This document shows positions 46,569 through 48,768 of a DNA stretch of 64,000 nt, in pieces. The notes beneath the pieces are model-generated. The model was not told the origin of the DNA. It made no database searches and saw nothing but the letters and a program-made list of their open reading frames with translations. The position numbers were made by a program, and so were the translations under genes. Source of the DNA: Escherichia coli (GTDB taxonomy: Bacteria; Pseudomonadota; Gammaproteobacteria; Enterobacterales; Enterobacteriaceae); assembly GCF_016026235.1 (NCBI RefSeq), contig NZ_CP065613.1; one strand, written 5' to 3'. Numbering within the stretch: position 1 is the stretch's first letter; every line of letters begins with the position of its first letter.

Positions 46569-47361
46569 ATTGCACAGGCCGTAAGAACCAAACCACGACT
46601 GAATGAAACTGGACTGGCGCCAGCAAGCCTGTTCAGACTGGGGCTGAACTTTTCCGGACTCTGAAAGATTACCAATACTCATCGTCCATCCGCTTGCTTT
46701 AGGCTGACAGGTTCATAATCAACGCAAACCAGAGCTGTACAGGCTTGGGCGCGGCTTTCAAACCAGTCGTGATCACGGCAATCAATTTTGAACTCTGCTT
46801 AACGGACATTTCTGTATAACCCTTACGGCAACGAAAAACGCGAAGTTAAAATTTTAGAAACCCAAAAACGTGACATGACTAAGTTTAGATTTCAGGGGGG
46901 GAGATCAAAAAATTTCGCTCTGTGCCAGAGCGGACATTCACGGAGCTGGTTCATTACCAATGAGGTTGGGCTTTTGAGGATAAATCAATGATCAGACGCC
47001 AACGTAAATCAAAAGCAACCCTAGAACGGAATTGCTAATCCAGTTTCTGACCATCGATTTTTCTAAAAAGTGTGCGTTTGCTACTACTTAGGTAGGTGCA
47101 GCTTTCTTAATCACCGGCAGCCACGTTATACAGGCCAGTTGATGGATCGATTGTTATCAATGATATCTTCATGAGTCGGTGTCTCACCCAGCTTACCGAA
47201 GCTGGCATAAAGTGAAGGCAGACGGGCCCGTCCTTCTCCCTTTTTCGCCAGAGGGAAAGCGCGAAGCATGGTGGCAGCCTCCCAGTCACAACAATAGGAT
47301 GGTGTGCACGGCTGCTGACGCCATGATTCAGCGATAGAGCCGGAAAATACGGGGTCAAAGC

Positions 47362-48655
47362 CTGAGGGATCCCCAGAAAATTTAGTAAACCATTATCATA
47401 TTGGTATACCGTTGCTGTAGAACTTTCAGCCCTGCGTCAAGTGACAGTGTGTTTAGTATGAGTGGAGAATGTCGAATCACATTCTCCGCCAGTTTTAATA
47501 ACGAGATGACTCGCCTGTGCTTCACTGTATTTGCCTGATATTTATGATGTATCCCTTTGTTTTCCAGGCTGAAACCGCTTAACCACATAATGATACTGGC
47601 TAATGTTGCGATCAGACTCAATACCGTGACCCGCCCGGATGAATGACTGGCACCAAACCGTAGTCCAAATCCCCAGCGAGGATTTTTTTCATCCCTGAAA
47701 TTTTGCTCAATTTGCATTCTACGGCTGTATAATTTCATTACCTGTTTTGGCGAGAACTCAGTACTGTTTGTGAAAATAAACCATGGTGATTTCCCGGCAG
47801 TACGAGCTTTAGCCGTCACCGATGGTCTGGTTGCTCTTTCCTTCGAGCGTTTAAATCTACGACCTTTAGGCTTACTTTTATAAAGATAAAAATGCCCTTC
47901 ATGTTGTGCATTTTTATCTCGACCCAGCAGGCCTTCACCTAAATAAATTGCTGTCGTTGATGCTTTTGTGCCTGAGTCCGACACCTTTTCCCAGCCATTA
48001 CCAACATTGTAATAATGATTGCCCAGTACCCGGCAAATATAGGTCCAGCCACGGGAGCGGAGCTGTTGGAACCATCGCCCTGAAAACCGGCATCTGTAAT
48101 AACAATGACATCAGTCCCGGGGGAAAAGCACTCAGCAAGCGATTCCAGAAAACGCTCATGTACATCTGCATTCGCTGTCTGTGATGATGGAACGACACAA
48201 CTCATCAACGGTAAAGAACGCCCGTCACATGCCAGGCTTGCCCGCAAAAGCTGAAAACGAGAGGCATGATAAGCACTCCAGTCAATGAGTATCACAACAC
48301 GAGACATTCCCCGCGTAATCTTTTGGGTAATTCGCTGAAAAATGGTGGAAACCTCATTTTGCAAATGTCGATTCCCCAACAGTCGATCCACCCGCTTTAT
48401 TTTGTTTTTAACTGATGCCGTACCGGTTAAATGACGCCCGATACTGGTAAGTGTGAGGGAAGCGCCATTTATTACAGCATTAGTTGCGTCAATCAGTGAT
48501 TTTTGACGGTAAAGATGCAAAGGGGCCAGTATATTGTTAAGGAAATTTTGGCATAATGAACGTGCAGGCATAGTGGTGATCTCCTTGAAATTGTTAGCAC
48601 AATCAATTAGATCACATCTCACTATGCCTGTCTTGTTTTCTGGGGATTCCTCAGG
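47362..48655 (-). mobile_element. IS4-family (IS10-like) insertion sequence, about 1.29 kb, with 9-bp target-site duplication
   Basis: Terminal inverted repeats ctgagggatcccc (47362..47374) and ggggattcctcag (48642..48654); 9-bp direct repeat ggtcaaagc at 47353..47361 and 48656..48664; boundaries +/-1 bp. Confidence 0.7.
47382..48571 (-). pseudogene. IS10-like DDE transposase, frameshifted
   Basis: N-terminal ORF (MPARSLCQNFLNN...VILIDWS...VIVITDAGFQ) and C-terminal ORF (...YSRRMQIEQNFRDEKNPRWGFGLRF...) align in order to IS10 transposase as I recall it, but are in different frames; frame switch near 47940..48070. Confidence 0.7.
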
Positions 48656-48768
48656 GGTCAAAGCCGGTATCATTAACCAGAGTCATCGTGACCTGTACTG
48701 CGGCTGGATGATCTCCTGCTACTGCAACTGCTAGGCGACCGCGGCTCCCTTCAGGTAGTCTGTTGTGG

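Follow-up and report, generated by a model that had tools for sequence, protein, structure and literature searches.

A single copy of ISEc60, an insertion sequence of the IS4 family related to IS10, very probably occupies 47362–48655 of the window (the whole 64-kb stretch of Escherichia coli DNA that was analysed), where it transposed in with a 9-bp target duplication and where its transposase is broken by a 1-bp deletion. Over its full length the segment is 99.8% identical to copies that carry the annotation 'IS4-like element ISEc60 family transposase', and the name ISEc60 is taken from the NCBI PGAP annotation of these matching copies. Under the ISfinder convention, nucleotide identity above 95% denotes the same IS. 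The near-identity over the whole element (1294/1295 bp) makes the window copy an isoform of ISEc60. Judged by its sequence, the element is already known and catalogued rather than new. The features of the element and of its target are collected in Table 1.

Table 1. Coordinates of the ISEc60 copy, its transposase frames and its interrupted target in the window
Feature	Position	Strand	Remarks
ISEc60 element, entire	47362..48655	-	1294 bp; intact copies 1295 bp; 99.8% full-length identity to annotated copies
Left 9-bp target-site duplication GGTCAAAGC	47353..47361		Register set from three other ISEc60 copies with 9-bp duplications of their own
Inverted repeat distal to the transposase start, CTGAGGGATCCCCAGAAAA	47362..47380	+	GATC at 47368-47371; identical to reference copies
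Transposase C-terminal part, out of frame with the start	47382..48077	-	Reference residues 166-396 and stop; encodes E289 and the YSRRMQIEQNFRDEK motif
Transposase N-terminal ORF, truncated	47939..48571	-	210 codons; native up to residue 165 (D97 and D160 retained), then 45 out-of-frame residues and stop
CCC run (CCCC in intact copies), 1-bp deletion	48078..48080		Alignment to three reference copies; frameshift after codon 165
Substitution, A (G in references)	48533		Synonymous; only substitution relative to reference copies
Stable hairpin, candidate RNA-OUT-like antisense RNA	48564..48634	+	Encloses the transposase ribosome-binding site and ATG; two GATC sites
Inverted repeat proximal to the transposase start, reverse complement CCTGAGGAATCCCCAGAAAA	48636..48655	-	Without GATC
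Right 9-bp target-site duplication GGTCAAAGC	48656..48664		Same basis as left copy
Interrupted target, downstream half	47126..47361	-	NAD(P)-binding oxidoreductase remnant; distal part of PGAP CDS WP_000177057.1, ...VFSGSIAESWRQQPCTPSYCCDW...
Interrupted target, upstream half (LPEGSRGRLAVAVAGDHPAAVQVTMTLVNDTGFDP)	48656..48758	-	tblastn, P0033 residues 140-174, 94% identity; abuts the IS3-family element end at ~48762

Extent of the element and its broken transposase

Inverted repeats of 19–20 nt close the element. The far one reads CTGAGGGATCCCCAGAAAA and the near one, at 48636-48654/5, has the reverse complement CTGAGGAATCCCCAGAAAA; a repeat finder reports them as a 20-nt inverted repeat, 95% complementary, at 47361-47380 and 48636-48655. 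The terminal motif CTGAGGRATCCCCAGAAAA has two sites in the 64-kb window, both of them the element ends, where shuffled sequences are expected to give 0, and the same search finds no second ISEc60 copy in the window. The exact direct repeat around the element, as found by the repeat finder, spans 12 nt (47351-47362 and 48654-48665) rather than 9, because the tips of the IS happen to match the flank, and the element boundary is therefore ambiguous by 1–2 nt from the window copy alone. Three other ISEc60 copies carry the different 9-bp duplications GTAAATCCC, AGATTACGC and GGATAACCT, and these fix the boundary as CTGAGGG...CCTCAGG at 47362-48655. Four other ISEc60 copies have a perfect 9-bp duplication of their own, which with the window copy makes five independent copies. 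The duplication, together with the empty site that is recreated on removal of the IS, shows that the window copy was inserted by transposition, as the earlier note had proposed. That note had also described the inverted repeats, a perfect 9-bp direct repeat and an element of roughly 1.29 kb; direct reading and the repeat finder recover both kinds of repeat, and its coordinates are exact.

ISEc60 occurs in many replicons. Matches over at least 80% of the element length are found in 14 complete E. coli genomes, and 45 plasmid records, from E. coli, E. albertii and Shigella dysenteriae, match as well. An intact copy has a length of 1295 bp and a single continuous 396-aa transposase frame (WP_001111632.1). 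The exact intact protein occurs in 512 blocks of the assembly collection, with numerous copies in some genomes. Species-representative genomes give 0 matches to a pattern covering the segment in both its intact and its deleted form. The literature on ISEc60 consists of published mobile-element tables in which it is named, and a search with the accession numbers of two relevant assemblies returned no mention. In plasmid pCFSAN029787_01 (positions 1-1604 examined), two ISEc60 copies stand head to tail with exactly 9 bp between them, and the same 9-mer is present again after the second copy. Another tandem pair, also head to tail with a 9-bp spacer, is seen in GCA_031665585.1 (copies starting at 1418 and 2722), so that tandem pairs recur in two unrelated replicons.

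The transposase is encoded on the minus strand and is indeed split between two frames, as first noticed from the open reading frames; the cause is one missing base. The native ATG is at 48571, and the frame opened there runs out of register after residue 165 and ends at 47939, 45 residues later. The C-terminal frame has its stop at 47384-47382. Relative to two of the three aligned reference copies (L001 and L003), the window copy differs by one missing C and by A for G at 48533 and by nothing else. In the coding strand CAG GGG CGA TGG becomes CAG GGC GAT GG, and the frame changes after G165. When the C is added back, the 396-aa protein is identical to WP_001111632.1, which makes the change at 48533 synonymous. 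The terminal repeats and the 9-bp length of the duplication are those of the ISEc60 reference as well, so the window copy departs from it in being 1294 rather than 1295 bp long, with one C fewer at 48078-48080, and in that synonymous position.

The reference protein WP_001111632.1 matches Pfam DDE_Tnp_1 (PF01609) with E = 1.8e-20 and NCBIfam transpos_IS4_2 (NF033591) with 360.5 bits against a cut-off of 152. Its DDE residues D97, D160 and E289 were placed by alignment with IS10A, ISSfl1 and an ISVsa5-like protein; we take them to be the equivalents of D97, D161 and E292 in IS10. The IS4 family is characterised by a DDE transposase of the DDE_Tnp_1 or IS4 type that has the motif Y-(2)-R-(3)-E-(6)-K; in the window copy the glutamate and the motif are out of frame. 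The truncated protein is the sole product that can be started at the native ATG. It retains D97 and D160 and loses E289 and the Y-R-E-K region (YSRRMQIEQNFRDEK); because these are missing, the product is predicted to be catalytically dead and the copy would be unable to transpose alone. Intact copies have a single uninterrupted transposase ORF. The 1-bp deletion makes the window copy a pseudogene, a recently inactivated ISEc60, and leaves its family membership unaffected.

The deletion is probably a real inactivating mutation and not an error, as far as comparison with other copies tells. The 210-aa truncated product has one further exact match among recorded proteins, in CP026877.1 (GCA_002950035.1); for the 244-aa and 83-aa ORFs there is no exact match. 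The copy in CP026877.1 lies at another locus, between sugar-metabolism genes and a response regulator, and has its own duplication GGGAGAGAC. It shows the identical 1-bp deletion without the 48533 substitution. This identical allele at another site in an independent assembly is one reason why the deletion is judged real. An 80-nt probe centred on the deletion has an exact match in 0 of 93 matches from complete E. coli genomes and in 0 of 62 matches from plasmid records (~155 altogether, the two collections partly overlapping), with a best match per record of at most 98.8%. As the deletion is missing from these matches, the CCCC run is not a general assembly-error hotspot. The deletion allele is rare, yet it is present at two independent insertion sites.

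Sequencing or assembly error is the strongest alternative, and the true element would then be an intact, autonomous ISEc60. Loss of one base from a homopolymer (here CCCC to CCC) is the commonest type of long-read consensus error, and otherwise a single synonymous base separates the window copy from the intact ones. However, the independent assembly repeats the deletion at a different insertion site, the ~155 matches that lack it come from assemblies made by many technologies, and a run of four bases is short to produce a systematic homopolymer error, so that we consider this explanation improbable. The earlier note had held that identity to a known IS with a continuous frame would turn the frameshift into an error. 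Such identity is found, but the error does not follow from it, with the same deletion in CP026877.1 and its absence from the other matches. Recoding of the kind seen in IS1 or IS3 elements, through programmed ribosomal frameshifting or slippage in transcription, by which the two frames would be joined and full-length transposase still be made, has nothing in its favour beyond the existence of two overlapping frames and is rejected as scarcely credible, because the junction TTT CAG GGC GAT GG is without a slippery heptamer or a long A/T run and intact ISEc60 has one continuous 396-aa frame, from which the window frames differ solely through one base missing from otherwise identical copies. Recoding is not known among IS4-family elements.

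Relation to IS10 and ISSfl1 and the hairpin over the transposase start

The assignment to the IS4 family as an IS10-like element, made in the earlier note, agrees with the Pfam and NCBIfam matches, with the alignment of the DDE residues to those of IS10 and with the 9-bp duplication. ISEc60 and IS10 (IS10A, ISVsa5, the IS of Tn10) share a DDE transposase, whose D, D and E residues align, and the YxxRxxxExxxxxxK motif. Their terminal 13 bp hardly differ (CTGA.GAATCCCC), and 9-bp duplications are made by both. Compared with the ends of IS10A and an ISVsa5-like element, those of the window copy start with CTGA..GAATCCCC as in the IS10 subgroup. The transposases of IS10A and ISVsa5, on the other hand, are ~36% identical to that of ISEc60 (tblastn). 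The element is not IS10 itself by identity, and among the matches listed none at megablast level is annotated IS10. It is also shorter, as had been noticed, with 1294/1295 bp against 1328-1329 bp for the IS10-type elements measured. The suggestion that it may be a distinct IS is thus right with respect to IS10, by protein identity and length, and wrong if it means an uncatalogued element. A new IS distinct from all named elements could be argued from that clear divergence and shorter length, but it is rejected with near certainty, since copies 99.8% identical over the whole length are already named ISEc60 by NCBI and the name stands in published mobile-element tables.

The closest other named relative found is ISSfl1 (IS4 family, Shigella flexneri), with ~52% transposase identity (tblastn) and a length of ~1301 bp. 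It has an end of the CTGAGGAATCCCCAGAAAA type and a hairpin at the start codon with compensatory changes, as in ISEc60. With about half of the residues different, ISSfl1 is a separate element by any isoform criterion. Beyond the near-identical copies, more divergent relatives of ISEc60 are seen in the E. coli plasmid NZ_CP060062.1 and chromosome NZ_CP171637.1, with 85% and 82% DNA identity, respectively; both are annotated merely as 'IS4 family transposase' and both are frameshifted pseudogenes.

A stable hairpin covers the start of the transposase gene, with a position and strand that agree with RNA-OUT of IS10. It folds much more stably than shuffled sequence (z = -6.7 and -6.8 for the two strands). 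The Rfam model of RNA-OUT aligns over its full length on the strand antisense to the transposase, with a score of 16.8 bits (E = 6.5). This score is far below the gathering score of 41, and the match is therefore not significant taken alone. The hairpin is kept in four relatives, namely two closer relatives, ISSfl1 and a Salmonella relative, and in two stem pairs both positions vary (UA/CG/AU and GC/GU/AU, n = 5 sequences). With so few sequences this is no more than suggestive of a possible IS10-like antisense control in ISEc60, kept in ISSfl1 and in this branch of the IS4 family. Both arms of the stem and the far-end repeat (47368-47371) hold GATC sites, and the near-end repeat has none. In IS10, transposition is coupled to Dam methylation through GATC sites at the far end and close to the transposase promoter; the placement in ISEc60 is the same. 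Reading by eye gave promoters for the transposase mRNA and for the antisense RNA; a promoter consensus scan picked up none of them, and the by-eye readings were set aside. From the end consensus, the hairpin over the transposase start and the placement of GATC, the layout of the element appears to follow that of IS10.

The target gene and its surroundings

Removal of the IS with one repeat copy (47362-48664) gives a 2098-bp empty site with 1 mismatch to E. coli 2021CK-01784. The empty site is present at 99.8-100% identity in many E. coli chromosomes and some plasmids. PGAP annotates there an 85-aa minus-strand CDS, WP_000177057.1, as 'hypothetical' or 'NAD(P)-binding domain-containing protein'; its neighbours are fecE on one side and a frameshifted IS3-family transposase on the other. 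The 9-bp duplication corresponds to nucleotides 23-31 (codons 8-11) of this CDS. The earlier note had placed the insertion in a minus-strand frame beginning MIPALTP. That frame exists in the empty site and the duplication covers its codons 4-6; it is not the ancestral coding frame, which is the WP_000177057.1 frame.

Neither the 85-aa target CDS nor the 87-aa frame from the earlier note has a significant Pfam or NCBIfam match, and the target was then identified by homology search. A 181-aa Raoultella protein with NAD-binding Pfam domains is 94% identical to LPEGSRGRLAVAVAGDHPAAVQVTMTLVNDTGFDP, and a metagenomic 'predicted dinucleotide-binding enzyme' matches on through ...ESWRQQPCTPSYCCD... 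In tblastn the two target halves fall at 48758-48654 and 47371-47234, flanking the IS. By this homology the target frame is the C-terminal part of a dinucleotide-binding oxidoreductase gene, truncated earlier by the IS3-family element. The remnant starts about where that element ends (~48762), so that the N-terminal two-thirds are missing. It follows that ISEc60 landed in an already dead gene fragment, and the insertion is probably neutral for the host.

The element is found at this site in 0 of the 5,426 complete E. coli genomes searched. The draft assembly GCA_001907395.1 has the same transposase-proximal junction, running into the IS end; its contig enters the IS for only ~36 nt, and the deletion site is thus outside it. 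Most matches to the 63-aa junction ORF are short contigs with empty-site sequence that stop at the insertion point, and GCA_001907395.1 is the only one that continues into the IS. Nine short contigs from unrelated samples end 0-2 nt from the insertion point (~48655) with empty-site sequence, which may be an effect of query selection or a common assembly branch point. With the insertion missing from the complete genomes and one draft sharing the junction, it could be used to mark a lineage.

The neighbouring IS3-family (IS911-like) element at ~48762-49935 is on the minus strand, and its orfB is split into 199-aa and 80-aa pieces; other E. coli genomes likewise annotate it as 'frameshifted'. It is older and degenerate, and it truncated the oxidoreductase gene before ISEc60 arrived. 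The iron-citrate uptake genes fecIRABCDE lie at 39023-46568. Beyond them in the island, genes encode a polysaccharide deacetylase, a glycosyltransferase, a DUF535 protein and a lipid A acyltransferase. These four genes come after the IS3 remnant, at 50172-54048, and the group-1 glycosyltransferase is annotated capU in matching E. coli records. The set is similar to the shf-capU-virK-msbB2 cluster found on virulence plasmids of Shigella and EAEC, and in this genome it appears to be chromosomal. An IS1 transposase fragment is located upstream of fecI (36229-36606) and a second IS3-family orfB at 54564-55382. Insertion sequences lie on both sides of the fec island and throughout it. A tRNA-linked island boundary was considered and rejected, with 0 tRNA genes in the window.

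Possible mobility in trans and the deletion allele

Both terminal repeats, the putative regulatory hairpin at the 5' end and the GATC sites of the window copy are identical to those of intact copies. An intact ISEc60 transposase in the same cell could still move it, and we infer that the copy could be mobile in trans. The simplest reading of the two sites is that a real mutation would have been inherited by descent and the defective copy then moved by the transposase of intact copies. Alternatively to shared descent, the run may have slipped independently in each copy, or gene conversion may be responsible.

The same deletion at two sites, each with its own 9-bp duplication, raises a further idea, in which the deletion allele would be a non-autonomous ISEc60 lineage kept moving in trans by intact copies. 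Its 165-residue N-terminal product might then damp transposition where ISEc60 expands, as truncated transposases do in some other elements. We regard this extension as doubtful.

The significance of the finding lies mainly in annotation: the locus is to be labelled ISEc60 with a frameshifted transposase pseudogene, in an oxidoreductase remnant downstream of fecE. The deletion allele common to two sites is, in addition, a hint that a defective ISEc60 copy may move in trans.
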